The translations under genes and the position numbers were made by a program. From Schmidtea nova (Eukaryota): a DNA stretch of 64,000 bases. The notes under the pieces were generated by a model. The model was not told the DNA's origin. It saw only the letters and a list, made by a program, of their open reading frames with translations, and searched no databases. Positions 11,173 through 48,362 of this stretch are shown in pieces. Numbering within the stretch: the first letter of the stretch is position 1; every line of letters begins with the position of its first letter. The stretch lies in contig CM097882.1 of assembly GCA_044892505.1 (NCBI GenBank), positions 183,520,001 through 183,584,000 on the forward strand. Reading direction: 5' to 3'.

Positions 11173-11294
11173 TGTTGAAAATAGGTAAATCATTTTCTCT
11201 TCCTGAATTAACAATTAACAGTCGTCGAAAGAATGAGAATTGTTCAAATCCACACAACCAATTTATGTTAATAAACCATCTTGAATTTTAGAGA

Positions 11295-12475: not shown

Positions 12476-12493
12476 TGGGGGCTCAGCCGGGAT
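12476..12493 (+). promoter_or_regulatory. Primer-binding site, tRNA-Pro type
   Basis: TGGGGGCTCAGCCGGGAT matches the canonical tRNA-Pro PBS TGGGGGCTCGTCCGGGAT at 16/18; 9 nt downstream of the LTR. Confidence 0.85.
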
Positions 12494-13327: not shown

Positions 13328-13370
13328 TAAATAAATTTTGAAATTGAATAATATGATTTGTGATAAAGGA

Positions 13371-22830: not shown

Positions 22831-23484
22831 AGTAGGGGATAGTGAGGTTACGGAGCCACTTTTTTCACATAGCAACGGTTGCTAAGGTTATTACACATAC
22901 ATCATTATATAATCATCGAAGAACACGTTGCCAGGGTAATTACACACACATATATCAATTTATAGTCCTAGTGAAATATGTTGCTAAGGTAAACACACAC
23001 CAATGTATTTTCTTCGAGGAAACTGTTTCCAGGGTAAATACACACAATAGGGTGACTTCCCTGAGGACCTTGTTGTCTGGGTAAACATACATACATACAC
23101 ATCAATATATAATTCTTACTGATAGATGTAGTTAAGGTAACTACACACAGCAATATATAGTCCCCGAGGAAGATGATGTCAAGGAAAATACACACAACAA
23201 TATATAATCCCCGAGGAACCTGTTGCCAGGGTAAACACATATCAATATATAATCATCGAGGAACCTTTTGCTAGAGTAGACACACACATTAAAGTATTGT
23301 CTCCTTGGAACCTGTTGCTAAGGTAAATACGCCATTGTGTAACGGCAGTGACTACTGTTGGTAACATCAAAACATACAACACATTAATTATTACCCGTAA
23401 CACACTCGATAACATGTTTTTACTTAATCGAACGACGTTTTTGTTTTAATGTACTGACTAACATTTCGAGTAGTTTTTTATTAA

Positions 23485-23670
23485 TTGATAATTTTTGATA
23501 TATTATATAATTTTTGTAAAATGATCTTTAGAAAATCGAATATGAGAACTTTGAAAACGGATGAAATGAATGCGAGAATTGTGACAATAGTCGAAATTTT
23601 AAAGACGATTCTACAAGAGCAGATGAAATTTAATAATATTTGTAAACAGAAACAATTATTTTTACATTAA
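23485..23670 (+). CDS. Small Maverick ORF convergent with PolB (mirror copy 35270-35455 on -)
   Basis: Peptide TLKTDEMNARIVT...LQEQMKFNNICKQ recurs as TMKTDGINSRIVT in the copy at 1-60 and LQERMKFIIICKQ near 59480-59535; true start uncertain. Confidence 0.45.
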   Translation: MIIFDILYNFCKMIFRKSNMRTLKTDEMNARIVTIVEILKTILQEQMKFNNICKQKQLFLH

Positions 23671-23852
23671 ATAAAAATATTGACACAAAAAAAAAATGAA
23701 AACCCTGAACAATAAAACCGTTTGAAATCTTGTCAATACATAAAACTTTAAAAATAATTAAACATAATAAACTAAAGAAATATAAAACTAAATATAATGA
23801 AACCAATTATTTTTTAACAAAGTTTTATTCAATACAAATCTGAATTGGATAT

Positions 23853-26800: not shown

Positions 26801-27572
26801 CTGTACAATATTTTAACTGTAAGGATTGAGGGGTTTGAATGTGACTACGTCCACTCAATCGAGATATTTGAGCAAATTTAGTTACAACGAAATGGATTTC
26901 ATTAACTTTGTTAATAACCCAATTACTCCCTTTATCGTTAATTAATGCTATTTTTTCATTTAAAAGAGCAATACCCTCGTCAAAAAAGGTATCACTCATA
27001 GGTCTCGCAGAATTTGAAATGATGAAGGATTGAAATTCTCCATCTTTTTCAAACTCTACGTCAATACAAAATTGTATTTTCACTGAACCCATCTCATTAA
27101 TAACATTATTTAGTTTATTAATTAAAATATCAGGTAAAATTAAAGTTTTCAAAACCAAGTGAGAAACATCCATTTTTACAACAGCGTGAGATTTTCTCAA
27201 ATCAAATTTAACGTTAGGAAGAAGGGACCCACCATATTGAACATCTATGGTGTTAATGTCATTATTAAAACTTGTGTCAGAGTCGGAAAGAATTTTCATA
27301 TCGGATATTACCTCGTCAACTATATTACTTAATTTTCTAACTTTTGTAGGTAGTGGATTATCGATAAGGATTTTTCTTTTATTATTAATAACATTGATAT
27401 CACTATTATCTATTGTTAAATTAAAAATGGATTTTTTCGAAGATCTAAATTTCCTTAAATGATCCTTATGGTCATCATAAAAGTTCAAAAAAGTAGAATT
27501 TTGAGTGGTCTTACATACGGGACATATAAAAAACGTGACTCCTTTATACGAATATCGGTAATATTTTACCAT
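23853..27572 (-). pseudogene. polB: Protein-primed B-family DNA polymerase, left arm (1239 codons, one internal stop)
   Basis: Exo I VYADFE, endonuclease-VII-like insert CYLC...RDHDHYTG...ACNSCN, Exo II FHNLKGYD, motif A IDINNLYG, motif B KL*NNSLYGKT (TAG at 24687-24689), motif C AGDTDS, RPKCYS. Confidence 0.95.
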
Positions 27573-30356
27573 TATTTCAATACATTTATTGTCATGAATT
27601 GATGATCGGCAAAAATTCGGAAAAAGTTTACCTTAAATATAAAAAATAATTAAAAATATGAAAAATAAATGACAAGTATTTTAATATTAAAATTAATGTC
27701 ATTATACAATAATTAATTAATAATTACAATAATAAAAATTTAATTAAATAATTTTAATATTATGAAAAATAATATTAATTAATTTCAATTATTATATTCT
27801 TAATTATAATTGTTTTAATAATAAGTTTTACTCAAAGATGTGAAATTTAAATTATTTACAAGTAATTTAAAAATATTAATTTAATATAATAATTTTCATA
27901 TAGAACATATTATTTGCTATGATAGAAAATAAATTATTTATTAATAATTAATTTACAAAAACTTTAATTACTAAAACATTATTAAAAAAAAAAAATAAAT
28001 AAATAAATAAATAAAACAATAAGTAATAATAATCAATATTCAAATTAATTTTATATTCAAATTAATTAATTAATTATTATAAAAAATTAGAATAATTATA
28101 ATTAAAACTAGAATTGTTTTAATAATTAGTTATAAAATAAAAATTCTAATTCAAAAATTGTAAATAATTTTCAAAAATTAGTAAACACTACAAAACTAAT
28201 TAAAAACTAATTATTAATTTAAATAATATAGTTAATTATTTTAAGTTCTCATTAGTATTTATTAACTTATCAATGATAAATATTACAAATCTCTTTGAAT
28301 AATAAATAAAGATTATCCGTTAAATTACAAAATTGATAAAGAAAACTAATTTTATTTAAGTTTATTTACAAAGGTAATTAATTATAAATTGCAATCATTA
28401 AATAAATCGATACTTACAGTTATTTTCTTTTATCTTTTCATCGTTAAGTTTATTTTTCATTAAACTATCCATTGTTTCAGATGCTTCAACATTGTCACCA
28501 ATAACGTTGTTCATATTGTTGTCGACATCGTTGTTGTAATCATTGATCATGGTAATATCCATATTGTAGATGTTGTTGTTCATTTTATCTAAAATAAGTT
28601 GATTATTTAAAAACTTTAAAACAAAAATAACTTACCAAATTTAAATTGCAGTAAAAAGTGATTCTTAAATGAAAAACTATTGTTTATATACTAAATTCAA
28701 AAATTTTTAACCAATCAAATTCGAGGAAACATACACACACGTTTGTAAATACCACAGTGTATTTTATTTTTACAATTAAATTTTGTAAAATTATTGAACA
28801 CAATTTATTGTTATAAATATATGTCATCATTTAATGATAAATATCAATTATTTTTAAAATACAATGTAATAAATTAAGATTAATTTTAAAATTAAATTAT
28901 ACTAATAAATTATAAAAATTATTACAAGTAATTAAAATTAAATAAAAAAAAAATATTTAATTATTCGATAAATTGTAAATTAATTAAAATAAAAATTAAT
29001 TAATTAAAAGTAAACTAATTATTCACAAAGTTATTAGTTTTTACATAATGTATTACTGTAAAGAATTAGAATATAAATTGTTACAGTGAAAACACAATTA
29101 AAGTATCAATCAGCAAATAAAATCAATTATTTACAACAAAACCCATGTGTAACACGATAATTTTTAAATTTCTAATCAAACAATTTAGTGGAAAATTTAT
29201 ACATATAATGAAAACTCTAAAAAATTATTTTAAATTGTTCAAAAATATCAATAAAACATGTGTGCAACATGAAAAATGACTAATTTTTCCCTAAATTTTT
29301 TTTTGTGGGGGGGGGGGGGTAAAAAAAATTTTTAGAGGGGGAGGGGGGGTCTGTTCCTGTTCTTGGGCGCTCCCCCTACTCTACTATCAACATTTTTAAT
29401 TTTTCTTTTTTCTTTATTTGTGCCTCAAATTGAAATTATTCGTTTTTCTCGCTGTAACAATGTATAGACAGAATTTTATTCTCTACAAGATGGCCAACTT
29501 GAAAATTCAAAATGTTGTGATTTGCGAGCTGCACACGCGTTTTGTTGTTATTAATTGGTTTTCTTTGATGTTATAATAAAGATAATGAGTTTTCACATTA
29601 ACAATGTATATTCAAAATTTAATTTCCTATAAAATGGTTTAAATAAAAATATAAAATTAGTCATTTTTCATGTTGCACACATGTTTTATTGATATTTTTG
29701 AACAATTTAAAATAATTTTTTAGAGTTTACATTATATGTATAAATTTTCCACTAAATTGTTTGATTAGAAATTTAAAAATTATCGTGTTACACATGGGTT
29801 TTGTTGTAAATAATTGATTTTATTTGCTGATTGATACTTTAATTGTGTTTTCACTGTAACAATTTATATTCTAATTCTTTACAGTAATACATTATGTAAA
29901 AACTAATAACTTTGTGAATAATTAGTTTACTTTTAATTAATTAATTTTTATTTTAATTAATTTACAATTTATCGAATAATTAAATATTTTTTTTTTATTT
30001 AATTTTAATTACTTGTAATAATTTTTATAATTTATTAGTATAATTTAATTTTAAAATTAATCTTAATTTATTACATTGTATTTTAAAAATAATTGATATT
30101 TATCATTAAATGATGACATATATTTATAACAATAAATTGTGTTCAATAATTTTACAAAATTTAATTGTAAAAATAAAATACACTGTGGTATTTACAAACG
30201 TGTGTGTATGTTTCCTCGAATTTGATTGGTTAAAAATTTTTGAATTTAGTATATAAACAATAGTTTTTCATTTAAGAATCACTTTTTACTGCAATTTAAA
30301 TTTGGTAAGTTATTTTTGTTTTAAAGTTTTTAAATAATCAACTTATTTTAGATAAA

Positions 30357-30522
30357 ATGAACAACAACATCTACAATATGGATATTACCATGATCAATGA
30401 TTACAACAACGATGTCGACAACAATATGAACAACGTTATTGGTGACAATGTTGAAGCATCTGAAACAATGGATAGTTTAATGAAAAATAAACTTAACGAT
30501 GAAAAGATAAAAGAAAATAACT
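30357..30522 (+). CDS. Probable upstream coding exon of PolB (mirror 28418-28583 on -)
   Basis: Flanked by a 47-nt GT-AG intron (30305-30351) and donor T|GTAAGT at 30523; acceptor TTAAG| at 31308 restores the PolB frame. Confidence 0.5.
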
Positions 30523-31367
30523 GTAAGTATCGATTTATTTAATGATTGCAATTTATAATTAATTACCTTTGTAAATAAACTTAAATAAAATTAGTTTTCT
30601 TTATCAATTTTGTAATTTAACGGATAATCTTTATTTATTATTCAAAGAGATTTGTAATATTTATCATTGATAAGTTAATAAATACTAATGAGAACTTAAA
30701 ATAATTAACTATATTATTTAAATTAATAATTAGTTTTTAATTAGTTTTGTAGTGTTTACTAATTTTTGAAAATTATTTACAATTTTTGAATTAGAATTTT
30801 TATTTTATAACTAATTATTAAAACAATTCTAGTTTTAATTATAATTATTCTAATTTTTTATAATAATTAATTAATTAATTTGAATATAAAATTAATTTGA
30901 ATATTGATTATTATTACTTATTGTTTTATTTATTTATTTATTTATTTTTTTTTTTTAATAATGTTTTAGTAATTAAAGTTTTTGTAAATTAATTATTAAT
31001 AAATAATTTATTTTCTATCATAGCAAATAATATGTTCTATATGAAAATTATTATATTAAATTAATATTTTTAAATTACTTGTAAATAATTTAAATTTCAC
31101 ATCTTTGAGTAAAACTTATTATTAAAACAATTATAATTAAGAATATAATAATTGAAATTAATTAATATTATTTTTCATAATATTAAAATTATTTAATTAA
31201 ATTTTTATTATTGTAATTATTAATTAATTATTGTATAATGACATTAATTTTAATATTAAAATACTTGTCATTTATTTTTCATATTTTTAATTATTTTTTA
31301 TATTTAAGGTAAACTTTTTCCGAATTTTTGCCGATCATCAATTCATGACAATAAATGTATTGAAATA

Positions 31368-34300
31368 ATGGTAAAATATTACCGATATTCGTATAAAGGA
31401 GTCACGTTTTTTATATGTCCCGTATGTAAGACCACTCAAAATTCTACTTTTTTGAACTTTTATGATGACCATAAGGATCATTTAAGGAAATTTAGATCTT
31501 CGAAAAAATCCATTTTTAATTTAACAATAGATAATAGTGATATCAATGTTATTAATAATAAAAGAAAAATCCTTATCGATAATCCACTACCTACAAAAGT
31601 TAGAAAATTAAGTAATATAGTTGACGAGGTAATATCCGATATGAAAATTCTTTCCGACTCTGACACAAGTTTTAATAATGACATTAACACCATAGATGTT
31701 CAATATGGTGGGTCCCTTCTTCCTAACGTTAAATTTGATTTGAGAAAATCTCACGCTGTTGTAAAAATGGATGTTTCTCACTTGGTTTTGAAAACTTTAA
31801 TTTTACCTGATATTTTAATTAATAAACTAAATAATGTTATTAATGAGATGGGTTCAGTGAAAATACAATTTTGTATTGACGTAGAGTTTGAAAAAGATGG
31901 AGAATTTCAATCCTTCATCATTTCAAATTCTGCGAGACCTATGAGTGATACCTTTTTTGACGAGGGTATTGCTCTTTTAAATGAAAAAATAGCATTAATT
32001 AACGATAAAGGGAGTAATTGGGTTATTAACAAAGTTAATGAAATCCATTTCGTTGTAACTAAATTTGCTCAAATATCTCGATTGAGTGGACGTAGTCACA
32101 TTCAAACCCCTCAATCCTTACAGTTAAAATATTGTACAGTAAATGTAAGAAATTCTGACGACTTGTGTTTTATTTATAGCATTTTAGCTATTTTGAAATA
32201 TGATGATGTAGATGGACACAGATATAGGACAAGTAATTATAATCTTTCGGATCTTGTCTTTGACCCTTCAGAAATGCCCATGAGACTCTGTAATATTCCA
32301 AAATTTGAGGCTAAAAATCCCGGACTTGCTATTAATGTTTTATCTTATGATGAAGATGCTCTTCTTGATACCTTGGAAGACCCTGAAGTTTTTAAACATC
32401 CTTGTGTCGATATAATTCATAGGTCGAAAGTTATTGACGGTACTCCTATTAACTTGATTTTGTTGGAAAGTTGTGATGCATATCATTATATTGCAGTCAC
32501 CGATCTTGATAAGCTTTTAAATTACGACAATAGATCTCTTTCTGTAGCTCGCGTACAAAGTATATGGTGTCATCGATGCTTGAATGGATTTCGAAAACAG
32601 GAAGCATTCGATTGTCATCAACAGTTGTGTGCTAAAAATCAATTAGGCACAACTCTTTATACTCTGCCTAGAAATAAAGATTTACAATTTAGTAATTGGG
32701 GCAAAACAATTACCCCACCTTTTGTTGTTTACGCCGATTTTGAGGCAATCTTACCTGCTGATGATAAGTACTTTCAAAGACATGTCCCAATATCTGCCGG
32801 TCTTTTACTTGTAAATTACTTTACTGGAGAAAAGATTTACAAGAGTTTCTTAGGTCTTGATTGCGTTACTAATTTTCTTACTGAAATTAGTAATATTTCT
32901 GAAACTATTGTTTATCCCTTTTATAGAACTAATTACAAGAAACCTCTTTTTATGACATCGGCTAATCAACAATCTTTTGACTCTGCTACTATTTGTTATC
33001 TTTGTAGGAAAACTTTAGTACAACCAGTCAGAGACCATGATCATTACACTGGTGAATTCTTGGGAGCTGCTTGTAATTCTTGTAATCAATCCCGTCGGTT
33101 ATACAAGTTTTTACCCGTTATTTTTCATAATTTAAAGGGTTATGACTTGCATCATATTCTTAAATATGGTTTGGCTAATTTCAAAACTTGGAAAATTTCT
33201 TGTATTCCTACAACCAGTGAAAAATTCTTAACTTTATCAGCAAGGGTCGGTGATTTAACCATTAAATTCATCGATTCTTGTCAGTTTGTAAATTCTAGCT
33301 TAAATGACGCTGTTAAGACTCTTACTTGTTTGCCTTTGACTAGATCTGAATTCACCGGGACTATTGTTGACTGTAAGGGTATTTTTCCTTATGATTTTGC
33401 AACATCTTTAGAAATTCTTAACAACACTTATGAGTTGCCACCAATCTGGAAAGGTGTTAAGCAGGCTGAATACGACAAGGCATTAGTTATTTGGAGGGAA
33501 ACCCAGTGTCAAACTCTTTGTGACTATATGATGGTCTACCTTAAACTGGATGTTTTTCTTCTTGCTGATTTTTTTCAACAGTTTAGGGCTAAATCTATAG
33601 CTCACAATAGACTTGAGCCTTTGAATTTCTTGGGTATTCCAGGTATGTCGTGGGCTTCAGCGCTTATTACCTTCGATGAACCTATTGAATTGCTCCAGGA
33701 TATGGAGATTTATAATTTTTTCGAAGGGGGGATCCGTGGTGGTTTGACATTTGTCAACAAGCATCATGTAGTATCCTCCGAAACGACTGAACTTTTATAT
33801 ATTGACATAAATAATTTATACAGGTGGGCTTTAAGTCAAAACTTACCTTACGGTAAATTTAGTTGGATCACAGATCAAAATAAATTAAATTAATTAATTA
33901 AATTAATGGATGTTGATTTGGCTATTTTGACTTATGGCGTGACTTTTGAAGTGGATCTTGAAATCCCTTCAGAAATTCACGATAAATTAAATGACTTTCC
34001 AGTAGCGGCAGAGAAAATGTGTGCTCCGGGTTCAAAAGTTGAGAAGTTAATGCTGACGCATTATCCAAAGTTCAACTATGTTGTTCATTGGAGGCTTCTC
34101 AAGCTTTTTGTTTCTTTGGGTGTTAAAATAACACGAGTTCATCGGGCTGTTCAGTACAATCAGAAACCCATTTTTAAAAAATATATAGATACAAACACTG
34201 AACTTAGGGCAGCATCTTCTACAGCTTTAGATAAAAACTATTACAAACTCTAGAATAATAGTCTTTATGGGAAAACGGTTGAAAATCTTAAAAAACGACT

Positions 34301-35087
34301 TAATTTACGACTATGTAATTCAGCATCAAAACTGATTACATATACTTCAAAACCTACCTTTAGAAAAACTTATAGAATTGACGATGACCTAATTTCTGTC
34401 TTGCTTAATAAGGACTCTGTGTGTTTAGATAGACCCAGCTACATTGGCCAAACTGTACTGGATTTATCTAAACTTAGGATGTACCAGCTGCAGTATGAAG
34501 AGTTACAAAAATATCGTAATGAATTCAACTGCGAAATTAACATCGTTGCTGGTGACACCGATTCTTTCTTCTTGGAGATTAGAAATTGTAGGTTAGATAT
34601 TCTTTTACCGGCCATGATAAGAGATTGTCTTTTGGATACATCGAATTACGACCCTAGTCATTCTTTATATTCGAAAAAACTTGATTCGGTTATAGGAAAG
34701 TTTAAAGACGAAAATAAGGGTCATAAATATAAGGAATGGGTTTTTCTTAGACCTAAATGTTATAGTCTTTTAGGTGATAAGGAATGTTTAAAGGCTAAAG
34801 GCCTCTGTTTGAAAGATACTAAACTGAAGCATCGGTCTTATCTTGATTGTTATAGAAATAATACTATAGTTTCAGTAGAGCAGTCTCGATTTGTGAGTAA
34901 AAATCATCAAATTTTTACTAATAAGTTTTCGAAAATTGCCTTGACTAATCTTGATGATAAAAGACTTTGGGTTGATAAAAATGAAAGTCTTGCATACGGA
35001 TATTATAAGGGATGTGGCTCGTTTATAGACCAATCAAAAGATCAGGTTGGTGTTCCAGTTTCAGATCCAGCTCTCAATTCAAATTAA
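31368..35087 (+). pseudogene. polB: Protein-primed PolB, right arm (two internal stops)
   Basis: Mirror of the left copy; shared TAG at 34251-34253, private TAA at 33891-33893, G>R at 33822, V>A near the C-terminus. Confidence 0.95.
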
Positions 35088-35718
35088 ATATCCAATTCAG
35101 ATTTGTATTGAATAAAACTTTGTTAAAAAATAATTGGTTTCATTATATTTAGTTTTATATTTCTTTAGTTTATTATGTTTAATTATTTTTAAAGTTTTAT
35201 GTATTGACAAGATTTCAAACGGTTTTATTGTTCAGGGTTTTCATTTTTTTTTTGTGTCAATATTTTTATTTAATGTAAAAATAATTGTTTCTGTTTACAA
35301 ATATTATTAAATTTCATCTGCTCTTGTAGAATCGTCTTTAAAATTTCGACTATTGTCACAATTCTCGCATTCATTTCATCCGTTTTCAAAGTTCTCATAT
35401 TCGATTTTCTAAAGATCATTTTACAAAAATTATATAATATATCAAAAATTATCAATTAATAAAAAACTACTCGAAATGTTAGTCAGTACATTAAAACAAA
35501 AACGTCGTTCGATTAAGTAAAAACATGTTATCGAGTGTGTTACGGGTAATAATTAATGTGTTGTATGTTTTGATGTTACCAACAGTAGTCACTGCCGTTA
35601 CACAATGGCGTATTTACCTTAGCAACAGGTTCCAAGGAGACAATACTTTAATGTGTGTGTCTACTCTAGCAAAAGGTTCCTCGATGATTATATATTGATA
35701 TGTGTTTACCCTGGCAAC

Positions 35719-36290
35719 AGGTTCCTCGGGGATTATATATTGTTGTGTGTATTTTCCTTGACATCATCTTCCTCGGGGACTATATATTGCTGTGTGTAGT
35801 TACCTTAACTACATCTATCAGTAAGAATTATATATTGATGTGTATGTATGTATGTTTACCCAGACAACAAGGTCCTCAGGGAAGTCACCCTATTGTGTGT
35901 ATTTACCCTGGAAACAGTTTCCTCGAAGAAAATACATTGGTGTGTGTTTACCTTAGCAACATATTTCACTAGGACTATAAATTGATATATGTGTGTGTAA
36001 TTACCCTGGCAACAGGTTCCTCGGGGATTATATATTGTTGTGTGTATTTTCGTTGACATCATCTTCCTCAAGGACTATATATTGCTGTGTGTAGTTACCT
36101 TAACTACATCTATCAGTAAGAATTATATATTGATGTGTATGTATGTATGTTTACCCAGGCAACAAGGTCCTCAGGGAAGTCACCCTGGAAACAGTTTCCT
36201 CGAAGAAAATACATTGGTGTGTGTTTACCTTAGCAACATATTTCACTAGGACTATAAATTGATATATGTGTCTGTAATTACCCTGGCAAC
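35719..36290. repeat. 295-bp tandem duplication (second copy with an 18-bp deletion) in the right TIR only
   Basis: AGGTTCCTCGGGG at 35719 and 36014; the net +277 bp explains the arm-length difference (59217-58940). Confidence 0.85.
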
Positions 36291-36392
36291 GTGTTCTTCG
36301 ATGATTATATAATGATGTATGTGTAATAACCTTAGCAACCGTTGCTATGTGAAAAAAGTGGCTCCGTAACCTCACTATCCCCTACTGTCATG

Positions 36393-39300
36393 ACATCAAA
36401 TACAGGACCAGTATTAACTACAACCATAGAAATAAATGGAAAAGAAATAGAAGCGATGATAGATACAGGAGCAAACATTTCGGCAATAGATATTAAATGG
36501 ATACCGCAAGAACAGAGACAAGAAGTTGAAAGAACAAATGTTCATGTAATCGCATGTAGTAAAGAGATAGTTGAAGTTGCAGGAAGATGGTGGGTGAAAA
36601 TACGACACCAAAATATAGAAATCGAAACGTATGTAGCAGTAATACCGGCTTTAAGTGTACCATGTATAATCGGAACAGATTTAATGCCAACACTATTCAA
36701 AGAAATAATCATCGATCTTGGAACAATGAGATTAAAGGACAGAACAAGGAAAATAGGTGCCATGGAAGCAAAAATAATGATACCGGAAGAAAGAATCATG
36801 ACGAGATCACAAACCATCAGAATAAATATGCTCAGAGCGGAAGAAATTAACACAACTAGTCAAGTAGACAGTGAGAAAATCGATGTTGACAAAGAAATCG
36901 TACGAAAAGCCAAAGAAATAAACGAAAGATGGGAAATCAGACAAGGAAAAGACGTTTTATGGGATATACGACAAATAATCAGTGATTACGCACGAGGATG
37001 CCCAACCAAACCAATCATAATAGAATTACTAAAGAAAATACCAGAGATACTCGTATTACAAGATACAGGAGGTGCAACTGCACTACACAATGCCATAAGT
37101 TGGGGTAAAACGGAAAAGGTAAAAGAATTCTTGAAAATAGCAAAAGAAACGAATCAAAATCTAGACATTGTAAATCGAGAATTAGAAACGCCAATGATGA
37201 CAGCAACACTAAGCTTAGCAGATAAAAAAATAGTAGATATGCTGATCAACGCAGAATTCAACTGGACAGCTCGAAATAGAAGAGGAAACACAGTTTTAAA
37301 CCATGTAATAATGAGTGAAAATCAAATGATACTAAAACATATAACAACCAACCTCACATGGGAAATCGATGAATTAATCAAAGGAGAAATTATGAAGGAA
37401 GCGATTCGGAAAGGAAACACTAAAACCATATGGAAACTAATACAATGGAAATGGCCGAATAATAAAATATGGGTATTAGATATAAACAAAGAATTTAGCG
37501 AAGGACAGAACGCGCTATTGAGATACTTATTAGAGTTTACGTGCGATCAGAGAACAATGTTAGCACTAATAAATAGAGGAAAAATAAATATTAGTAAAAA
37601 CGAAGAGGAATATAAACTAGAAGTCGAAAAGAAAGCGTTATTCAGGAAAATTTGGGTATGGTGTCAAAAACAACTACGCAAAGACATAAGCTACAAAAAT
37701 CTAAATGATTTCCAAGAAAAGTATAAAACGATAATAAAGGAATACAAGAAGCTAGTGGAGATATTAAACGATCCAGAAAAATTTAATCAAGCGATAAATC
37801 AGAAAGAAGAAGAAAGTAAAAGGATACTCACACCATTGTTCAACGCGAAAATAGATTACCAAGAAAGATTAGATGCAATACAGAAAAAAGCAAAGGAACT
37901 ATTACCAGAATTCAAAGATACAAAATACGCCTTGGAAATACTTGGCGCAATAGTAGAAAAAGTACACGCGTACGCGAAAGGAATATATAATGGAAACGAT
38001 ATAATAATTATAAAAAGAGAAATGCCAGTTGCATTTTTACTAACTAAAGAAAGAATAATGCCGATTCATAGAGCATTGAGAGCAGGAAAAGACAGTAAAG
38101 TAATCGAAATCGCAAGATTAATGCATCAATGTGGATGTGATATGAATATGATAGACGAAAAAGGAGACACCCTCATGGTATACGCAGCAAGAGCAAAAAC
38201 AAAAATCAAAGTATTAGAAGAGTTATATAAAGCAGGTGCAGGATTAATCGGGAAAACGGTCAAAGACAACTCAATATTAGACGTGACATTATTAGGTCCA
38301 AACTGGGAAATGTTGAATTTCATTAAAACGATAACAAACCAAGAAGAGATAGATTATTTAACAGAAACCGTAAAAGGACCAAGCGTATTGACAATGATGC
38401 AAAACATCAAATTGACAGAAGAAGTATTAAACTGGAAAATACCAAATACAAATAAACCAGCATTTAAAGTTAACAAGTTTATGGAGAATAATCGAAATTG
38501 GTGTATCCAAAGCGCACTAATAACTTATATATGGCCCGAAATTGTAGAAATTTTCATGAGAAGAGAAGATCTGAGATTTACAAACAAGCCCAAAGAAACG
38601 GAAAAGGTAGTTAAATGGAAAGAATTGATGAAAACACACCTTCAAAGATGGATAAAAGCCAAGAAAGAAATTATACAGTATCAGTTAGACAACAAAAAGA
38701 TACCCGAAGATATAGAATTCCAAGAATTCGAAGCAAGTAACTTAACATCACTATATTATGCAAAACTAATAGAAACAAGTAATGTCGAGGACGACATTTT
38801 TAACGAGCCAGGGAGAGATAATAATACTGACAATGATGATGACGATGAAGAAAACAAGGACGACGAGAGAAATAAAGACGATGATGATGAAAACAATCAC
38901 GGAAATCCAGATAACCACGAACAAACCAATAAAGAAGACGAGAATCAAGAGAGAAATACAAAGAACCACGAATCCAAAGAACAAAGAGAAGACAACCCTA
39001 AAAACAATCATGAAAAGAAAGGAACAAGTTACAGAAGGAATCCATTATTCAGACCAGAAGTATTAATGTTCGCAATAATCATAACACTTATGGGACAATG
39101 TGAAGCAACGAAACAAGAGATATCAGTAGAAATGGAAGTACCAATACAAAAAGCATCAACACAAATAATGAATTCAAAGGACATTGAACAAGTATGTTGG
39201 GTAAAAGAGAATGAAATTCTCGGAGATAACAACCTATTACGATGTATAATTCCAAACCCCGATCGAAAAACCATAATAATAGACGAAATGGATATGGAAA

Positions 39301-41033
39301 CATGGTACAGAATATGTACAATCAGAAAACCCAAAGACGAAAAATCACACAAAACAGTTACATGCCAAGTATACAAGACACCCAAAGTCCGATACGAGTT
39401 CGCCAATGGAATAGACCTTCCAGGACCAATTTATTTTAAAATAACAAGAGCACCAGCATCTAGAAAAGTCTTACAACAACCAAGAACCAAGACAACAATA
39501 CCAAGTACAAGGAATACAACGGATAAACCAGAAGCAAACGGAGGAAATACAACGGTTAAACCAGAACCAAAAAGACGAATGAAACAAACCACAAGAGTAA
39601 TCTATAACTCCAAGTTGTTATGTATAGCACTTATTATGACAATACTGAAGCGATTAGAAGAAGGAATAGAGATGGATACAATGACATTAATAGACATGGA
39701 AGAGACACAAATGACAAATCAAAAATGTTGGTTTAGAAACGATGAAAAATTAGAATTAAAGGAATCAAGAGAAATTCAGAAACTGGAAGCGAGTAAAACG
39801 AACAAAGTAATCAAGATAATAAAGATAAAAACAGACAGAATTCATAAACTATGTTTATTGGAAAAAGAGAGAAACAAGAAAGGAATAACCAATTGTAAAA
39901 CATTTCAAGCAGGAAAAATAATAACGTTTGCAAGAAAAATGGGAAAAGGAAACAAACAGAATTTCCAGAAATTAACCATAACGTTAGAAATAACGGGAAT
40001 AGAACAAAACGTAAACGGAGTATGCTGGAGAAAATACGAGAAAGAAACGAATAAACCTAAATCATCACAATGTCAAACAATCAGAGGAACAACTGCAGTA
40101 CAAATAAAAAGCTTAGAAAGAAATCAAACTTATGAAATATGCCTAATAAAGGAAAATGATCAAATAACGAAAGAAGATTAAGAATGCAGAATATACAAAA
40201 CACCGAACAGAGTAAAAACCAGTAAAGCAATACGAAAGAATAAAAGACAACAAAAACCGAAGCATACCACTACCGAAAGTCAAACAGAACCAGAGAGGAA
40301 AACCTCAGCAACACTTATACTTTGGAAATTAGATGACAAAACAGTGGAAATATGTTGGACAATGATCAAGAAATACGAAGAAAGACAACCACAACAATGC
40401 GAAAAGATGAATAAAGAAGAGGAGATCAGAATTCAGAACCTACAATTGGACAAACAATACGAAATATGCGCAATAGAAAAGGCAGATAAATTTGGAAACC
40501 AGCAAGAAAAATGTGGAAACTATTATACACCGACAAATACAACGATCAAAGGAAGAATCAAGAAACTGACCTTCGGAGAATTGAAGCAAACAACGAAACA
40601 AATGGAAAACGAGGAAACAATAATAGATTCTTATGCCCAATGGAAACCAGAGAAAGTAATTCAGGAAGTCAAAAGGAAACAACAAGAACGACAACAATTG
40701 GAACTCAAATTGAAAGGACAATATGGACCAATAATCAATCAGAGCAAATTCACCCAAATCAATGTTAACAAGCAAGGAAGAGAACTAATTGGAGTAGGAA
40801 TACTGGCAGTATGCGTACCAATAATAATAATAATATTATCAATAATATGGTTATGGGACATAATAAAAAAGAAACCAACCAGACAATGGCCAGATATAAA
40901 GATCATGAATTGTAAAATCAAAATACCTGAAGAAGTGAAGAAAGAATTCCAAAGAAGAACCAAAGGCAAAGAATTTTGGAAGCAAATAGAAGACGAGGAG
41001 CGACACGATGAAAAAGCAGTGATGATAGTATAG
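36393..41033 (+). CDS. Polyprotein, 3' part: retropepsin, two ankyrin clusters, acidic linker, internal signal peptide, four FN3-like repeats, TM; one in-frame TAA at 40179-40181
   Basis: Joins in frame to 22830 (...IAVM|TSNTG...); MIDTGANISAI...CIIGTDL; GATALHNAISWG, GNTVLNHVI, GDTLMVYAA; frame stays open from 40182 into track ORF 40344-41033. Confidence 0.9.
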
Positions 41034-41154
41034 AGGGTGGGATATGACTGTAAATAATATTGTAAATTACAAAGCATTACCGTATATAGTATGGGTATTA
41101 GTATTATAAAGTAGATAAAAGAGAAAAGAGAAAAATAATAATGTATTTTAGAAA

Positions 41155-41490
41155 ATGAATGTACGAGAAGAAACAACCGAAATGACTTTGACTATGCGAT
41201 GGAAAGCACAATGTGAAACGTTAGTTCGATCAATTAATGCACTACAGAATCAACTGGTAGAGAAGCAAAATATATTAGCAGATTGTTACAACAATATTTT
41301 CGAACAGTTACATAAAATAGAAGAGCAACAGAGAACAATAACAGAACTAACAAGAGAGAATCAAAGATTGAGACAAACGATGGAAATAAATCAACTAACA
41401 AGAAGAGATGAATCAGAAGGTCAATGGCTAGATTGGGTAATAAATGGATTAGAGAATGGTATAGAACCAGATTCAACGAGCGAACCATAG
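41155..41490 (+). CDS. 111-aa coiled-coil accessory protein
   Basis: Heptad pattern; ATG after TTTTAG|AAA; same A-rich composition as the polyprotein. Confidence 0.7.
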   Translation: MNVREETTEMTLTMRWKAQCETLVRSINALQNQLVEKQNILADCYNNIFEQLHKIEEQQRTITELTRENQRLRQTMEINQLTRRDESEGQWLDWVINGLENGIEPDSTSEP

Positions 41491-41586
41491 TCAAATTGTA
41501 GCGGAAAATTGTATATATGTAAAAATAAAACTCTAGAAAAATCAAAAACAAAGAACAAATCAATGTATGTATATATTATTGTAGAA

Positions 41587-42942
41587 ATGGATAAAGAGGA
41601 ACGAGCAGTCGAGATTTTGAGAGCAGCAAACAGAAATTGGAACAAGAGATTTGTATGTGGATATTGTAATAATTTATTACGGAAACCAAAGCAAACCGCC
41701 TGTGGATGTAGATTATGCACCAGATGTGTACAAATGTTGGAACTAAAGAAAATAACAGAATGTCCAGAATGTAAAGAAGGACAAATAGTATTAGACGAAA
41801 CAAGACCAGATAGAGCAACTCAGAGAGAAATCATGAGCATATTAATTGAATGTATAAATCCACCGTGCATATGGCAAGGACAAATCAGCGAAATTGAAAA
41901 TCATATAGAAAATTGTGAAGAAAAGAGAAGCGAATGTGAAAGGTGTAAAGAAACGATAATTTTAAAAGACAAAGAGAAACACAGAGGTGAATGCAAAGAG
42001 GAAGAAATCGCATGTAAATATTGCGAAATTCGAGAAACAAGGAGAAGAATTGAAGAGGAGCACATCAATATAAAAGAAGAAAAAATATGCGAACAGTATG
42101 TAGGAGTGTGCCCAAACAAATGTGAAATTACCGAAGAAGTGAAATTACGAGAACATTGGGAAAAGTGTACAGAAATACCAAGAGAATGTCCTTACAACAG
42201 ATATGGATGCAAGGAAAAGAAGTCTCAACAAAATATTAAACAACATTTAGAAACAGAAGCAATCAATCATATTGAAATGACAGACAGAACAATTCAGAAA
42301 TTAGAAAAAGAAGTGGAATCTCATAAAATAATGATGAACCTATTATTAGAAACGAGAGAACAGTTTGAATTAACCCGAGGAAAGATGGAAAAGAAAATAA
42401 TAGCCATCAAGGAATTAGCAAAAGGAATGAAAGTACAATATAACAAGTTAATACAAGAAATTGATGAGAAAAAAGATTTACCAATAGCACCTTATGTGTG
42501 GAAAATAACGGATTTCCGAAATAAATTGGAAGATGCACGAAGCTTCAAGAAAACTGCGGTAATAAGCCCACCATTTTACTTATGGAAAAACGGGGCTAAA
42601 GTGAGACTGAAAGTATATCCAAACGGAGATGGGAAAAGTATTGGAAAACACATATCAATATTTTTTGCGTTTTGCAAAGGAGAATATGACGATTTAATCG
42701 ATTGGCCGATAGGAGTAGGAGTAATGATAAAAATCAGGGGTTTAAACGAAACCATAGAAAAGAGATTCACGACAGAAAAAGGAGCAGTTACGAGTAACAG
42801 ACCAACAGAAGAATGTGGATTAGCAAGTGGAGAACCACACTTTGTATTACAAAGCAAGATATGGGGATTATTGTATGAGGACACCTTATACATAGAAATG
42901 GAAAGGAACGAGAAGGCAGATAGAAAAGGATGGTTGGCGTAG
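41587..42942 (+). CDS. Full-length TRAF-like protein (RING, TRAF zinc fingers, coiled coil, MATH)
   Basis: CGYC...ACGCRLCTRC...CPEC; zinc fingers such as CPYNRYGC...HLE; MATH YVWKITDF...SPPFY...LKVYPNGDG...HISIFF...GEYDDLIDWP; likely ATG at 41587 after TGTAG|AA. Confidence 0.93.
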   Translation: MDKEERAVEILRAANRNWNKRFVCGYCNNLLRKPKQTACGCRLCTRCVQMLELKKITECPECKEGQIVLDETRPDRATQREIMSILIECINPPCIWQGQISEIENHIENCEEKRSECERCKETIILKDKEKHRGECKEEEIACKYCEIRETRRRIEEEHINIKEEKICEQYVGVCPNKCEITEEVKLREHWEKCTEIPRECPYNRYGCKEKKSQQNIKQHLETEAINHIEMTDRTIQKLEKEVESHKIMMNLLLETREQFELTRGKMEKKIIAIKELAKGMKVQYNKLIQEIDEKKDLPIAPYVWKITDFRNKLEDARSFKKTAVISPPFYLWKNGAKVRLKVYPNGDGKSIGKHISIFFAFCKGEYDDLIDWPIGVGVMIKIRGLNETIEKRFTTEKGAVTSNRPTEECGLASGEPHFVLQSKIWGLLYEDTLYIEMERNEKADRKGWLA

Positions 42943-43047
42943 CAAGAGAAAACAATCGTGTAAATAAACTGTACAAAACCATATAAAATGATAAATAAAC
43001 AAAAATAATAAAAGTAGTCTGATTGAAAATATTTGTAATTATAGAAA

Positions 43048-44151
43048 ATGGGAAACGTCGAAATCAGTTTACAAGAAGTTACCGCACATCAAGATGAAGT
43101 TATTTGTGAGCATTTAGAACAAATTGAAAGTTGGATCCACGCATATTACCACAAACAAAAAGAAGTAGAAAGACAAGCCGAACAAATAAAAGAAGCCAAA
43201 AGATTAAAGCGATTAAGTCAAGATAAAATAGATGAACTATATGAATTATTAGAAAAACAAAAAGAATATTATAAAAAGATGATGAAAGAACGACGAGAAG
43301 AAAGAGAGCGAGAACGAACAGAAATGGAACGGAAAATGTACTCCATTACCGAGCAAGCAAGATATTGGAAAAAAGAAGCGAAAGAATCGTATACGAAAGC
43401 AAGAGAAATAATCGAAAGAACGGCGTACCGCGATGATTGGAAGTTATTTGAAGAAATCGATAAATTAAAAGAGGAATTAGAACAGAAAACCTATCAGGAA
43501 ATATCGAGCAAAAAATTGAATAAAAAGAGACAACAATTCATCAGAGAGCAAGCAGGAAAAATTAAACAACTTATGCACCAGATTGAAAGGTCGGAAAGAG
43601 AATTATATTTCAGTAAACAACAATCAGATGCAAACCTCAGAGCAGGGATGCAGAAAGAGGAAGATATGAAGCGCGATATTAATGGTTATCAAGGAGTAAT
43701 CACTCAAAAGAAGATAGAATTAAAGAAAGCGAAAGAAAGATTAGAAGAAGCAAAGCAAAGCTATGAAGAAAATTTATTAAAATTAGAAGAAGCAAAACAA
43801 AGCTATGAGGAAAATTTATTAAATTTAACCAAAGAAAATGAAGAGTTGAAACAAAAACTGATACAAAAATTAACACCACCAAAAGAGACAGATATCACCA
43901 AAGCAGTAATAAAAATGATGGAAGAGGAAGAGAAAATCAAAAAAATAACAGAATTAGAAAAACAGATCGAAGCATTAACAGAACAATCAAATTATTTAGA
44001 ATATCTGTTAGACGAAGAAATTCAATTATCACACTTCTATCGAGACGAAGTAACAATGTGGAGAAACACGATAGTGTGGTTACCACTCCCTACGAATCAA
44101 GTGGAACCTCAAGATGAAGGTTTTCACGAACCAAATGAGTCGTTAGTTTAA
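43048..44151 (+). CDS. 367-aa long coiled-coil protein
   Basis: E/K/Q-rich heptads with an in-frame 14-aa duplication LEEAKQSYEENLL(K); ATG after TATAG|AAA. Confidence 0.8.
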   Translation: MGNVEISLQEVTAHQDEVICEHLEQIESWIHAYYHKQKEVERQAEQIKEAKRLKRLSQDKIDELYELLEKQKEYYKKMMKERREERERERTEMERKMYSITEQARYWKKEAKESYTKAREIIERTAYRDDWKLFEEIDKLKEELEQKTYQEISSKKLNKKRQQFIREQAGKIKQLMHQIERSERELYFSKQQSDANLRAGMQKEEDMKRDINGYQGVITQKKIELKKAKERLEEAKQSYEENLLKLEEAKQSYEENLLNLTKENEELKQKLIQKLTPPKETDITKAVIKMMEEEEKIKKITELEKQIEALTEQSNYLEYLLDEEIQLSHFYRDEVTMWRNTIVWLPLPTNQVEPQDEGFHEPNESLV

Positions 44152-44224
44152 AGAAGCGAAAAATTCGTTGTAAATATCTGTAAAATAACAATGACAAACT
44201 GTATTGACAAATTTGTAAAGTGAA

Positions 44225-44788
44225 ATGAAGAAACTCGCAATACTGATAATCGTAAACGTAATCGAGATCACCCAACAAAGAGAAGACCGTCCGATATCAA
44301 AAGAAAATCTACAAGTCTTACCCGATAAAATCTATAAAGAAATAGATAATCTATTAAAAGAAACAGTCAGAGAAATCTCTCAAATTCAATTGTCAACAGC
44401 ACGTAACCCAGTATCAACGCAACAAACCCTGTGCAAAATCAATAACAAATTAGAGAAGATTCGAAAAACCCTAAAAGAAAGTAAAGAAACTATAAAGAGT
44501 TTACATCGAGCAGAAATTCAATACCAAGAAAGATGGATCGTTGCGATTATAATCGTGTTAACAATTAGTACAACAACCTGCGCAATTACCATTCTCATCG
44601 CAGTATATAGAATAAAGATCCTAAAACAAAAACAATCAATCATCAACCAAACAACAGCACATGATGACAATGCCCGAAGACAAATGAGAAATCAGCTCAA
44701 CAGAATACGAACCCAATACGAATTACCAGCAATTCCACAGAACCAGTCCAATCCAGTGCGAGTTATGAACTATTTATATAAACTATAA
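44225..44788 (+). CDS. 187-aa putative type I membrane protein (signal peptide, helical ectodomain, TM)
   Basis: MKKLAILIIVNVI...; TM WIVAIIIVLTISTTTCAITILIAVY followed by a basic stop-transfer segment. Confidence 0.75.
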   Translation: MKKLAILIIVNVIEITQQREDRPISKENLQVLPDKIYKEIDNLLKETVREISQIQLSTARNPVSTQQTLCKINNKLEKIRKTLKESKETIKSLHRAEIQYQERWIVAIIIVLTISTTTCAITILIAVYRIKILKQKQSIINQTTAHDDNARRQMRNQLNRIRTQYELPAIPQNQSNPVRVMNYLYKL

Positions 44789-44980: not shown

Positions 44981-47774
44981 TGTTGGATCCACCATTTGGT
45001 CCACATTTAGCATAAATAATAAGAATAATAAGAAATAAATAAGAATAAATTAAAATTAATATAATTACCAGAAATTTCAGAAAAAAGATGAATTAAAAGT
45101 TATAAATTTATATAAATTTAACAGCAAGAATTAAGAGAAATAGAATTGAAATTATTAAAAGTATTAAGAAAATGATACATAATTATATTTAAATAAAAAA
45201 GAAAGTAAAGCAAATAAGTAGAATTACAAAAAATAATAAAAATCAAAACAGCAAATTGCTAGCAATTGACAACAAAATCAATTGATTTTAGCGTTAATAA
45301 AATTTATTATTTGTGCTGATCTGATGATCAGCTTCAAGCTGATTGGTTCAGCATTTGATCTGGTCAGTATAAATACTGATCCAGATTCAGTTAAAATTCA
45401 ATGAACAGTAGATGAAATTTTTTTCAACATTTTGTTGTATGCAAATTTTGTGAAGACAATATTTTTGAAAAACTAAAAGGTATGAGTATTTTGTTTTTTA
45501 TTATATTATGAATTCTGACATTGCCATTATAGTTATTTAAATGAAAATAATAAAACTTTCTGAATATGTTACATTCTTTTGAATTTAGAATTAAATTAAG
45601 CTTCTTCCACTGTGCAATCAGTGGAAGGAGACGACTTTATCTATTTATTTATCTATCTTTTATTGAGCTTCTTCCATCGTGTAATCGGTGGAAGGAGACA
45701 ACCTTAGTGTATTATGCTAACCATTACTTACAAGTATATATTTTTTAGAAGTGAATTTTTGGGTCGAGCTTCTTCCTCTGTGCAATCAGTGGAAGGAGGC
45801 GAATATATATTATTTATATACCGTAGTTATAGTAGAAAATTACGTATGATTTAAGGGGCTCCGATCACCGTGCAATCGGTGAAATGGAGGCATACTGTGC
45901 CGAGTAGAATGACTGCTCCGTACAGTTGGGCCGTCCGACCGGTGTAAAGCGCCGTGAAGAGGGTAGGAATTTTTATTTAACCATGATTTCTAACCTTATT
46001 TTTCACTGGATAGTATAACCAGTTGAAGTTTATTTTATAACCGATTTGATTTTATGAGTTTATAGTTGAGTAAAGTTTGATTTTAGTTTGAGACAGATAT
46101 AGCTGCGATCTTATTAACCTGATTTTACCTTGAGATTCACAGAGCGTTAACCTATATTTTTCGATTGTCACATCTGGGGTTTGTGGGCATAAAGCGGCAG
46201 ATACACGGTTAAGAATTTGTACAAAACATATTTTTAACAACATTATCAAAAATCGATAACTTTAATAGCGTAGTGATCTACTACGCAAGTAACATAGCAG
46301 CAATAGGCTATAGGATCAAACATTCCACATAAATAATTAAACATAATTGCTTATCCTGAACCCTGTATATAGGGCAGTAGATCTGAGTTTTATTTAAATA
46401 ATTTTCTTATCCTGACTGCTGTATATAGCACAGGCGTAAATAAATAAATGAAGGTATCTGATCGCTGTACATAGCGACAGTGTTGAAAATAGGTAAATCA
46501 TTTTCTCTTCCTGAATTAACAATTAACAGTCGTCGAAAGAATGAGAATTGTTCAAATCCACACAACCAATTTATGTTAATAAACCATCTTGAATTTTAGA
46601 GAATGTCAGTCAACTCAACCACTAATCAAGCCGAATTGGATAAAGCATGGAGGATAATTCGCAGCCTCGAAAAGGAAATGCTGCGAAAATCAGAAAAGCT
46701 AAAGGAAGCCGATGGAATAATTTCAAACCTGAAGAAAAGCTGGTTCAGTCCAGAACAAATGAAAATACAAATTATAAAAAATCAACGCTCGCAGCGAGCC
46801 AACAGCGAAATACAAATGGAATTAGATGCTACAAAGATGGAGCTGAAAAAATGTTTAAAATCCGTGACAGCTACCTATCTAAATCAAGAGCTCAGACAGC
46901 TCATTCGACCACTCACCTACCAGCATTGGGCTGAAGAAAAATCGGAATGTTCGAAAGGGACGAACACAGAGGAACCCTCTCAGGTTCAAGTAACAACAGC
47001 AGCAATTACACCAAAAAGTGTTACGATTTCAGAAGGCAAAAAGAAGAAGAAGAGCAAGATGGGAGCGCGCCAGCGTCGCTGGAAGAAACAAGTTCTTCAG
47101 CAATTGGCACAACAGTCAACAGAAATTCCGGAAATTGATTTAACTATGAACTTTGCAAATTCCGATGAAGACATTACCAAATATTTCGAATAGAAAATTT
47201 TGTGATTTGTAAATTTGCTTATTAAATAATTTTTATTTTGTATTTAGTTTATTGTAACGTATATGAGATAAAGTAATTTATTAAAAATTTCAAATGAATT
47301 AAACTATACATTAGAATTAACAATAGAATTAACATAAATCTAATAAACAATAGAAACATTAAAGAGATAAAATATCGTAATTGATTAAGGATTATTTGTT
47401 GATATTGTAAAGAAGGGGGCTGAAAGAAAAGTTGAGAGTTGAAATATATTGTAAAGAAAGGGGGCTAAAGAAACATTGAGATGAAAGATAATGGATGCGG
47501 ATAGATTAAAGTTAAAGCGTAAGTCCTTCTATCGGCAGCGAGACGAACCCGTGAACATAAATGGGGAGTAGTTTTAGCAATAGAGCTCACCTGCCCATCA
47601 TTGTTCAAACACCTTGCACATTTCCAACTCGATTATTACAGGGAAATGATCGAGGGTGCTCGTGTGATATGTAAGCATTTTATGTGAGGTTTTGGATGGA
47701 GGAATCCCTAGAGCGTTTAAAAATAATTGTTAATTCATTTTCTATTTTTGTTTTAACCCAATCCAGAACCGACA
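44981..47774 (+). repeat. 3' LTR (2794 bp)
   Basis: Direct repeat of 9673-12466, followed by TSD CATA. Confidence 0.97.
46603..47193 (+). CDS. Second copy of the LTR-encoded 196-aa protein
   Basis: Translation identical to 11295-11885. Confidence 0.7.
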   Translation: MSVNSTTNQAELDKAWRIIRSLEKEMLRKSEKLKEADGIISNLKKSWFSPEQMKIQIIKNQRSQRANSEIQMELDATKMELKKCLKSVTATYLNQELRQLIRPLTYQHWAEEKSECSKGTNTEEPSQVQVTTAAITPKSVTISEGKKKKKSKMGARQRRWKKQVLQQLAQQSTEIPEIDLTMNFANSDEDITKYFE

Positions 47775-48362
47775 CATATATATATATATAACATTTAAAA
47801 AGAGTACAACAAAATATGTGGGGGGGGGTGAAAATTCAAAAACTACTTGAAAATAAGTCGCTTCTTTTTTTAATTAAAAAATAAAAGATTAAATTACAAA
47901 AAACAGTTATTTATTTTAATTATCTACATAAATTTTTCAATAGTTTTAAATTAGTAGTAAATAATACAACGTAAATTAGAATGAAAGACTTTAATTGAAA
48001 ATATAAGTAGAAGTTTCACCTTAATATGGGTAATATTGAATAAACATATTTAATTTCTAAAAATGTTTTATTGTTAATCTTTTTTTCGGTTTTCGACTGT
48101 TTTCGTTTAATTAATTTCAAATCAGTTTAATATCGAAATTACAATAACTATTTGACAATTAACTCAAAGCAATAAATATTTTTTTTAAAAAGTGGTTTTC
48201 TCGCTTAACTTTAGGGTTTCGGTCAACGCCGTTTGGTGTTGCAAATGCTGTTTTTCAAATATTATATAAAAAAGAGTACTTTGGGAAAAATTCAAAAAGA
48301 AAGAACAAAAGAGGCGGAGGTTTAAAAGAGTACTGTACTCTTTACAAGAGTACGGTTGGTAT

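Follow-up and report, generated by a model that had tools for sequence, protein, structure and literature searches.

The window analysed here, a stretch of 64,000 nt from Schmidtea nova (contig CM097882.1, positions 183,520,001 to 183,584,000), carries a giant long terminal repeat (LTR) retroelement with a cassette of four short genes close to its 3' end, all on the same strand and each preceded by a spacer of roughly 100 nt. We propose that these four genes are expressed by alternative cis-splicing of one LTR leader to an acceptor lying before each ATG, and that a conserved motif placed after the upstream stop codons, UGUANAUA, is predicted to bind the host Pumilio protein. We put the probability of this reading at about two in three. 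It rests on the design and conservation of the sequence, together with genomic copies of spliced RNAs that document use of the LTR donor in a sister family of the element.

A conserved motif follows the stop codons

An initial annotation made from the window alone had described spacers of 121, 96, 105 and 73 nt, a perfect TGTAAATA or TGTATATA in every one of them, and AATAAA in two. All of this was borne out (Table 1), the hexamer being present in spacers 2 and 3 only. No TGTANATA lies downstream of the last cassette gene, and the 11.9 kb of polyprotein coding strand hold a single motif site. In dinucleotide shuffles (20,000 per spacer) the motif arose with P values of 0.097, 0.093, 0.101 and 0.026, and the joint value of 2.3e-5 overstates the case because the motif was picked after inspection; conservation is the better test.

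We therefore rely on a survey of the spacers in 66 other copies of the element in the host genome (G000; L-numbers below denote individual copies or loci in it). This recovered 249 of the 264 slots, from which three mis-parsed spacers were dropped (spacer 1 of L100, and spacer 3 of L056 and L101). Of the 246 that remain, all from related copies, 241 have UGUANAUA at 14-21 nt 3' of the upstream stop, and 234 of these 241 show another UGUA 8-12 nt further on. UGUA also recurs directly upstream of the acceptors. Established variants of the motif occur only at position 5, where spacer 2 has A in 10 copies, T in 42 and G in 10.

The window element belongs to what we call family A. A sister family, B, has the same four cassette genes in the same order, with about 68% identity in the MATH domain and 51-68% identity across the cassette proteins. 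Set beside L051, a copy of family B, the window matches at 31 of 32 positions of the first 8-mer and at 16 of 16 of the second UGUA; the corresponding figures are 245 of 335 (73%) for other spacer positions and 85 of 143 (59%) for four-fold sites. The layout is thus conserved across two families, and the feature is real and under selection.

Concerning the factor that reads the motif, the initial annotation had offered a Pumilio site or a CFIm UGUA element. Pumilio fits better, as the variation is almost confined to position 5, and CFIm needs UGUA alone. The host genome encodes a Pumilio protein with eight repeats (SRFIQ, NYVIQ, CRVIQ, NHVVQ, CRVIQ, NYVIQ, SNVVE, NYVIQ), whose residues we take to be those of the canonical recognition code. 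The described Pumilio response element is degenerate at position 5 (PMC5758885). The spacer motif resembles it: the 8-mer is exact, lies in sense orientation past a stop codon and varies at that same position. It differs in being a predicted site and in belonging to a mobile element, where it recurs at a constant position behind four consecutive genes. Judging from these sequences, Pumilio has an even chance of being the reader, and we regard CFIm, and equally some other factor, as doubtful candidates. A gene for CFIm25 (NUDT21) is present in the host at G000:C2:246839297-246840054 (L109, L110).

Candidate acceptors precede the start codons

The initial annotation had also placed a splice acceptor before each cassette ATG. 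Three of the sites have YAG 1-3 nt upstream; the fourth is a weak one, an AAG 4 nt upstream. Its further claim that the LTR gene and the RING gene share the acceptor pattern was correct. The cassette AGs end at 41151, 41584, 43044 and 44220, and those of the LTR and RING genes at 11291 and 12863. Of the six short genes in the window element, five have YAG 1-5 nt ahead of the ATG; among internal ATGs the share is 48 of 297 (16%). The cassette YAG is kept in 58/59, 62/63 and 64/64 copies of spacers 1, 2 and 3, respectively, with one TAG-to-CAG variant. Spacer 4 differs between the families: 50 family-A copies carry AAG 4 nt ahead of the ATG, and 8 of 9 family-B copies have acquired a CAG 1 nt ahead of it. 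The RING gene of family B has CTAG 3 nt ahead of its ATG. Across these genes the distance from AG to ATG varies among 1, 2, 3, 4 and 5 nt. From this design and its conservation we infer that splicing occurs at the four cassette acceptors.

A candidate acceptor also precedes the polyprotein and is conserved in 7/7 aligned copies of both families. No ATG occurs in any frame for 513 nt past 15075 (shuffle mean 4.2, P0 = 0.003), although the preceding 500 nt contain 14. Both the candidate acceptor and the ATG-free stretch would fit the same leader-splicing plan.

Leader ATGs have the pattern of a retained 5' UTR

The predicted promoter core is the same in family B, though the rest of the LTR is mostly unalignable. 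The leader that follows is hypervariable (64-239 nt), and it is closed by a donor AG|GTA in 62 of 65 forward LTRs. Only 7 of the 92 ATGs found in 48 distinct leaders are open through the donor, compared with 36.8 in shuffles, none of 1,000 of which was as low; when the leaders are clustered to 29, the figure is 5 of 56 compared with 22.5. Such depletion would be expected of a 5' untranslated region (UTR) retained on the mRNA and not of a discarded outron. AATAAA follows the donor at 50-92 nt in 50 of 62 LTRs and is not seen there in most family-B LTRs.

Leader sequences diverge much more than the cassettes of the copies that carry them: among the 3' LTRs of L001-L020 the mean pairwise score is about 0.47 of the length, against 96-97% identity for the cassette. 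Such hypervariability might possibly reflect escape from small-RNA targeting. Just past the donor (10172-10200), an AU(4-6)G word resembling an Sm site occurs in 29 of 36 distinct sequences compared with 9.8 in shuffles, a count that represents one inherited site and not independent ones. With AATAAA 70 nt on, a short LTR RNA would have an outline like that of a spliced leader (SL) RNA, and a U-rich intronic enhancer would be the simpler reading. The LTR intron also contains, at 10291-10600 and 11056-11170, three repeated hairpin-like units and three near-palindromic TGTAYATA units; the latter are missing from family B.

Genomic copies of spliced RNAs

Two family-B insertions are fossils of spliced RNA. 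In the first, L111 and L112 are the two LTRs of a single insertion (1,749 nt, 99.9% alike) and lack 1,550 nt bounded by GT...AG. They join the leader type of L104 and L113 to the exon of a 194-aa LTR gene after TTCAG, skipping an upstream open reading frame (ORF); this gene is the family-B homologue of the 196-aa LTR gene of the window. In the second, the L118/L119 insertion fuses the common family-B leader to a 158-codon LTR ORF, with about 800 nt removed; its acceptor TTTTAG is seen in L058, one of 7 unspliced copies, the remaining 6 reading TTTTGG. The family-B LTR donor has thus been spliced to two distinct acceptors, both within the LTR, and one of these joins skips the other acceptor. 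Both fossil acceptors lie 4-5 nt ahead of the ATG, and the cassette sites 1-4 nt ahead. The 158-codon ORF is a second gene of family-B LTRs (L051 9795-L052 270; L060:1659-2135), which family-A LTRs appear to lack.

An RNA spliced at the LTR intron can still be copied because this intron precedes the primer-binding site (12476). Fossils of cassette joins are not expected because such joins lose that site. We searched for processed copies with exact matches to an exon start plus a non-native preceding base, and found none for three family-A targets, namely the 367-aa gene, the polyprotein acceptor and the LTR gene, or for the family-B 353-aa gene. The patterns for the 367-aa gene and the polyprotein acceptor miss leaders ending in TAG, and the search covered one cassette acceptor, that of spacer 3, in both families. 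A pattern for the family-A leader end gave 6 matches against 5 for its control, none of them in an LTR, and ten copies whose spacers are absent or atypical have their breaks elsewhere than at acceptors. In read contigs of four runs (30/30 bins, LTR intron included; element 5' end, 9600-16000, left out), 0 of the 15 joints inspected, of 60, lay at the donor or acceptors; these runs are DNA-like and uninformative on expression.

The initial annotation had envisaged a polycistron resolved either by SL trans-splicing or by cis-splicing from the LTR donor. A single transcript driven by the LTR and resolved through splicing at these AGs is supported. The cis route gains direct DNA support at LTR acceptors and indirect support from the leader; what speaks for the SL route is circumstantial (spacer length and host group).

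A model for cassette expression

Under the proposed cis-splicing scheme, transcription would begin at the LTR TATA box, and the same donor would reach the RING, polyprotein and four cassette acceptors, giving nested mRNAs in which each gene comes first in one. Most of these would end at the poly(A) signal of the 3' LTR, with spacers 2 and 3 as possible extra 3' ends; spacer 3, where an AATAAA-like word is kept in most lineages, may serve in this way whether the genes are cis-spliced or form an operon. All mRNAs but that of the last gene would carry a Pumilio site 15-20 nt past the stop, plus those lying further downstream. The sites would damp or destabilise the transcripts in a graded way, affecting the full-length RNA most and sparing that of the last gene. 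RNA that stays unspliced past the primer-binding site would provide the template for copying. The motif may have other roles: it could protect long 3' ends against decay, or restrain use of the following acceptor, UGUA recurring just before acceptors.

Several points weigh against this scheme. Among the genomic copies, no junction was seen at any cassette, RING or polyprotein acceptor and no fossil in the window's own family, both fossils being of family B and inside the LTR. The cassette acceptors lie some 17-20 kb from the donor (insertion excluded), behind several competing acceptors, and that of spacer 4 in family A is only an AAG, a weak site. The donor might also be conserved for another purpose, the U1-mediated suppression of the 5' poly(A) site described in foamy viruses (PMC3694450). 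As to the motif, the surveyed copies are kin, so that 241 of 246 amounts to two families plus a few intermediate lineages. The spacers are conserved well past it (73% against 59%), so other elements matter as well. Finally, Pumilio binding is predicted from sequence, in a genome that also encodes CFIm25.

Alternative explanations

Much of the layout would also suit an operon, or a hybrid of the two plans, in which the RNA is cut and polyadenylated in each spacer through the hexamer and a tandem UGUA recognised by CFIm, the host SL caps the downstream piece, and the LTR donor serves the 5' genes only. Neighbouring genes share a strand, are separated by about 100 nt and have an acceptor ahead of the ATG, and the motif trails genes that have a close neighbour and not the last one. 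The second UGUA (234 of 241 spacers) and the CFIm25 gene agree with it, as does AATAAA in 54/63 copies of spacer 2 and 60/66 of spacer 3. An operon would need a 3'-end signal in every spacer, but the hexamer is found in 0/60 copies of spacer 1 and 8/60 of spacer 4, with few planarian variants in either, and it is common anyway on the A-rich coding strand (2-3.7 per kb). The spacers match flatworm operons in length (S. mansoni median 99 bp, PMC12582326; Macrostomum peak about 100 bp, PMC8629364), SL trans-splicing has been described in S. mediterranea, and the C. elegans element Cer1 has a spliced mRNA bearing SL1 (PMC3315495). Yet the donor works in cis, and acceptors of SL trans-splicing reportedly have no cis donor upstream (PMC8629364), a distinction restored only if the spacer is cut first. 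Flatworm leaders end in AUG, which the drifting distance from AG to ATG would often put out of frame. Planarian poly(A) sites are reported without upstream UGUA enrichment (PMC5068929), and a CFIm requirement for UGUA alone leaves the fixed AUA unexplained. We consider this explanation unlikely. If true, a mobile element would have taken over the host operon machinery and would deliver TRAF and other cargo as separate mRNAs.

Clearly more remote is a compact internal promoter for each gene, with TGTAAATA as a forkhead-type DNA site and AGCG(G/C)AAAA in spacers 2 and 4 as an E2F-like one. One could read in this way the TATAAA-like words of spacers 1 and 3, as well as the GCG motif that spacers 2 and 4 retain, and the env of Oikopleura Tor3b/4b is driven internally (PMC4402516). 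The A/T/G variation at position 5 in spacer 2 nevertheless breaks the forkhead core AAA, and the conserved YAG, the branch-point-like words and the acceptor design common to spliced sites would be left unexplained. About as improbable is a single polycistronic RNA translated by termination-reinitiation or internal entry, with the AG as mere start context. It would suit the short spacers, strong AAAATG contexts and few ATGs within spacers, but the pyrimidine before AG is kept while its distance to the ATG shifts, family B has a new CAG, and in no case does the fold of a spacer surpass that of its shuffled versions (z 0.5 to 1.7). We find least likely of all that the motif is a relic of an old spacer duplication (1 with 3, 2 with 4) that serves no function itself: spacers 1 and 3 do have TGA(C/TC) in front of the motif in common, and spacers 2 and 4 AGCG...AAAA, but identity at 31/32 motif positions against 59% at four-fold sites, and a post-stop position fixed at 14-21 nt, speak against mere descent.

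Comparison with known systems

By its architecture, set against the description in the review of the group, the element matches the Burro-type giant Gypsy retrotransposons of planarians, which by itself would point to a triclad flatworm as host. It has the long LTRs with primer-binding site and target duplication, a total length close to the 25-30 kb of the group, the Gag/fusion/protease polyprotein, and the ankyrin, TRAF/MATH and RING cargo; BIR and BCL2 domains gave no Pfam match in the window proteins. Burro/GYPSM1 likewise has multi-kb LTRs and accessory ORFs, a huge polyprotein with Gag and a mononegavirus-like fusion protein between Gag and protease, and ankyrin repeats with MATH/TRAF and RING cargo (PMC6431247). 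The family-B frame of 5,140 codons has the length given for the D. tigrina element (PMC6431247). TRAF is a separate gene 3' of the polyprotein here, whereas it lies inside the polyprotein in S. mediterranea and upstream in D. tigrina (PMC6431247). Unlike the described Burro elements, most family-A copies lack the segment for reverse transcriptase (RT), RNase H and integrase. The review is silent on how accessory ORFs are expressed (PMC6431247).

Among complex retroviruses, foamy viruses in particular share the LTR donor upstream of a poly(A) signal, accessory genes near the 3' LTR and a balance of spliced and full-length RNA (PMC3694450). The present element differs in being Gypsy-type, in having non-overlapping genes with spacers of about 100 nt, env inside the polyprotein and no export protein identified, and in having an LTR that itself contains coding genes and an intron, upstream of the primer-binding site. 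Nematode and flatworm SL operons likewise place genes of one strand some 100 nt from each other, each ATG directly preceded by an acceptor (PMC12582326, PMC8629364). Here, unlike in those operons, an upstream cis donor works, and two of the four spacers have not retained the poly(A) hexamer. Cer1 of C. elegans is also a Gypsy element that relies on host splice sites, with a 2.4-kb mRNA found with and without SL1, but it has a single spliced mRNA and no row of separate genes (PMC3315495).

If the cis-splicing model is true, a Gypsy element has independently reached the expression plan of complex retroviruses, with at least seven acceptors on one leader and a host RNA-binding site placed after each gene. 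The adenovirus major late unit, which belongs to an unrelated DNA virus, joins one promoter and a common leader to many acceptors with alternative poly(A) sites, and would offer a match if spacers 2 and 3 are 3' ends. Searches of the open literature, subscription journals excluded, on Burro splicing, SL use by retroelements, gypsy accessory splicing and Pumilio sites in LTR elements turned up no paper on this mechanism, most hits being judged by their entries. As far as these look-ups show, the conserved post-stop motif and the second fossil, with its alternative acceptor choice, appear new. Planarian genomes contain Burro elements by the thousand, with TRAF, RING and ankyrin genes among their cargo, and Burro RNA rises when piwi is silenced by RNAi (PMC8532177). 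Planarian PIWI-interacting RNAs degrade many TRAF and ankyrin mRNAs (PMC6824462), some of which may derive from such elements. The exact junction and motif positions are given in Table 1, open to long-read, 3'-end and crosslinking-immunoprecipitation (CLIP) data.

Architecture of the element

The element spans about 9673-47776 between 4-bp CATA flanks, or some 24.5 kb once a secondary insertion is subtracted (Table 1). At least 37 whole-cassette matches at 96-100% identity are present in the host genome, and at least 150 matches to the TRAF gene.

Table 1. Coordinates of the element's features in the window, all numbered from its first letter.
Feature	Positions	Strand	Remarks
5' LTR	9673..12469	+	about 2.8 kb, TG...CA; 99.9% identity to 3' LTR across 2,800 nt
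Predicted promoter	10034..10084	+	ATTGG box, TATAAATA at 10060-10067 in a palindrome, initiator-like TCAGTT
Leader exon (start inferred)	10081..10171	+	ends at donor AG|GTATGAGT (10171|10172)
AATAAA, predicted poly(A) signal ending R	10241..10246	+	about 70 nt past donor; 3' LTR copy at 45549
196-aa gene within LTR	11295..11885	+	acceptor TTTTAG ending 11291; no Pfam family
Primer-binding site	12476..12493	+	immediately 3' of 5' LTR, same place in family B; presumably tRNA-Pro-like
153-aa RING gene	12866..13327	+	PF13920, E 8.5e-12; acceptor TTTAG ending 12863
Candidate polyprotein acceptor	15057..15075	+	GTGAC branch-point-like, U-rich tract, TTTAG
Polyprotein, 5' part	15130..22830	+	153 ATG-less open codons, then Gag zinc knuckle (PF00098) and in-frame fusion glycoprotein (PF24664, E 5.8e-71)
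Secondary insertion, Polinton-like	22831..36386	.	13.6 kb; 6.4-kb inverted repeats, 6-bp target duplication, protein-primed polymerase B (PF03175)
Polyprotein, 3' part	36387..41033	+	protease, ankyrin repeats, membrane-anchored tail; no RT, RNase H or integrase
Spacer 1	41034..41154	+	TGTAAATA 41049, second TGTA 41061, TTTTAG ending 41151
111-aa coiled-coil-like gene	41155..41490	+	63% identity to family B; no Pfam match above cut-off
Spacer 2	41491..41586	+	TGTATATA 41510, TGTA 41518, AATAAA 41524, TGTATATA 41568, TTGTAG ending 41584
Intronless TRAF gene	41587..42942	+	RING-like N-terminus, zf-TRAF (PF02176), coiled coil, MATH (PF22486, E 6.5e-21)
Spacer 3	42943..43047	+	TGTAAATA 42959, TGTA 42970, three AATAAA, branch-point-like CTGAT, TATAG ending 43044
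367-aa coiled-coil gene	43048..44151	+	68% identity to family B; no Pfam family
Spacer 4	44152..44224	+	TGTAAATA 44169, TGTA 44179, conserved TGTATTGAC, weak AAG ending 44220
187-aa gene, two hydrophobic stretches	44225..44788	+	51% identity to family B
3' LTR	44981..47776	+	repeats promoter, leader, donor, AATAAA and LTR gene (46603-47193)

Of 10 proteins tried in an exact look-up, 0 were found. No relatives of the 367-aa protein were found, nor any of the TRAF protein at E <= 1e-40; the family-B coiled-coil protein gave a single weak, partial homology match. None of these look-ups brought up a Burro reference sequence. The TRAF frame has an extra in-frame upstream ATG at 41563, which overlaps the second motif of spacer 2 and is absent from family B.

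A Pfam search of the window proteins gave the polyprotein domain order PF00098, PF24664, PF00077, the fusion protein being Monjiviricetes-type. In the window copy the polyprotein is split by the Polinton-like insertion and has an in-frame stop at 40179-40181; frames of 4,108-5,162 codons are open in many copies. The frame is open for exactly 153 codons before the first ATG in 10/10 copies of both families (window 15130-15588; L059-L061, L063-L068), with conserved peptide blocks, which suggests an N-terminally extended Gag with a non-AUG start. An ATT in the context AAAATTG is conserved near 15142. Some 140 nt upstream of the polyprotein acceptor (14935-15075) show strong conservation across the two families. 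They include a short hairpin and a small Met-Gly-Lys ORF that ends at the same stop, and possibly form a packaging or splicing element. Repeated Cys-bearing segments between hydrophobic stretches in the polyprotein tail (39100-40600) have the look of extracellular repeats and gave no Pfam match.

Judged by spacing, RT, RNase H and integrase are missing from 18 of 22 plus-strand family-A copies. The family-A copy L062 has the order protease-RT-RNase H-integrase, with the RT/RNase H/integrase segment at 647-3674, between protease and ankyrin, and most family-A copies show a deletion of about 3 kb near window position 36770. We considered this loss as a splicing product and rejected it, as a 13-nt overlap at the deletion ends points to template switching. 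The copies that lack the segment keep the long frame and have spread recently, as a non-autonomous subfamily with Gag, fusion protein, protease and all cargo.

The Polinton-like insertion is a nearly perfect palindrome, with arms of 6,393 nt around a centre of 365 nt and a polymerase B on each arm, one of them broken by stops. Related ends occur at window positions 1-900 and near 59100-59500. Outside the element, the window also encodes an intact-looking hAT transposase of 634 aa on the minus strand (50252-52156).

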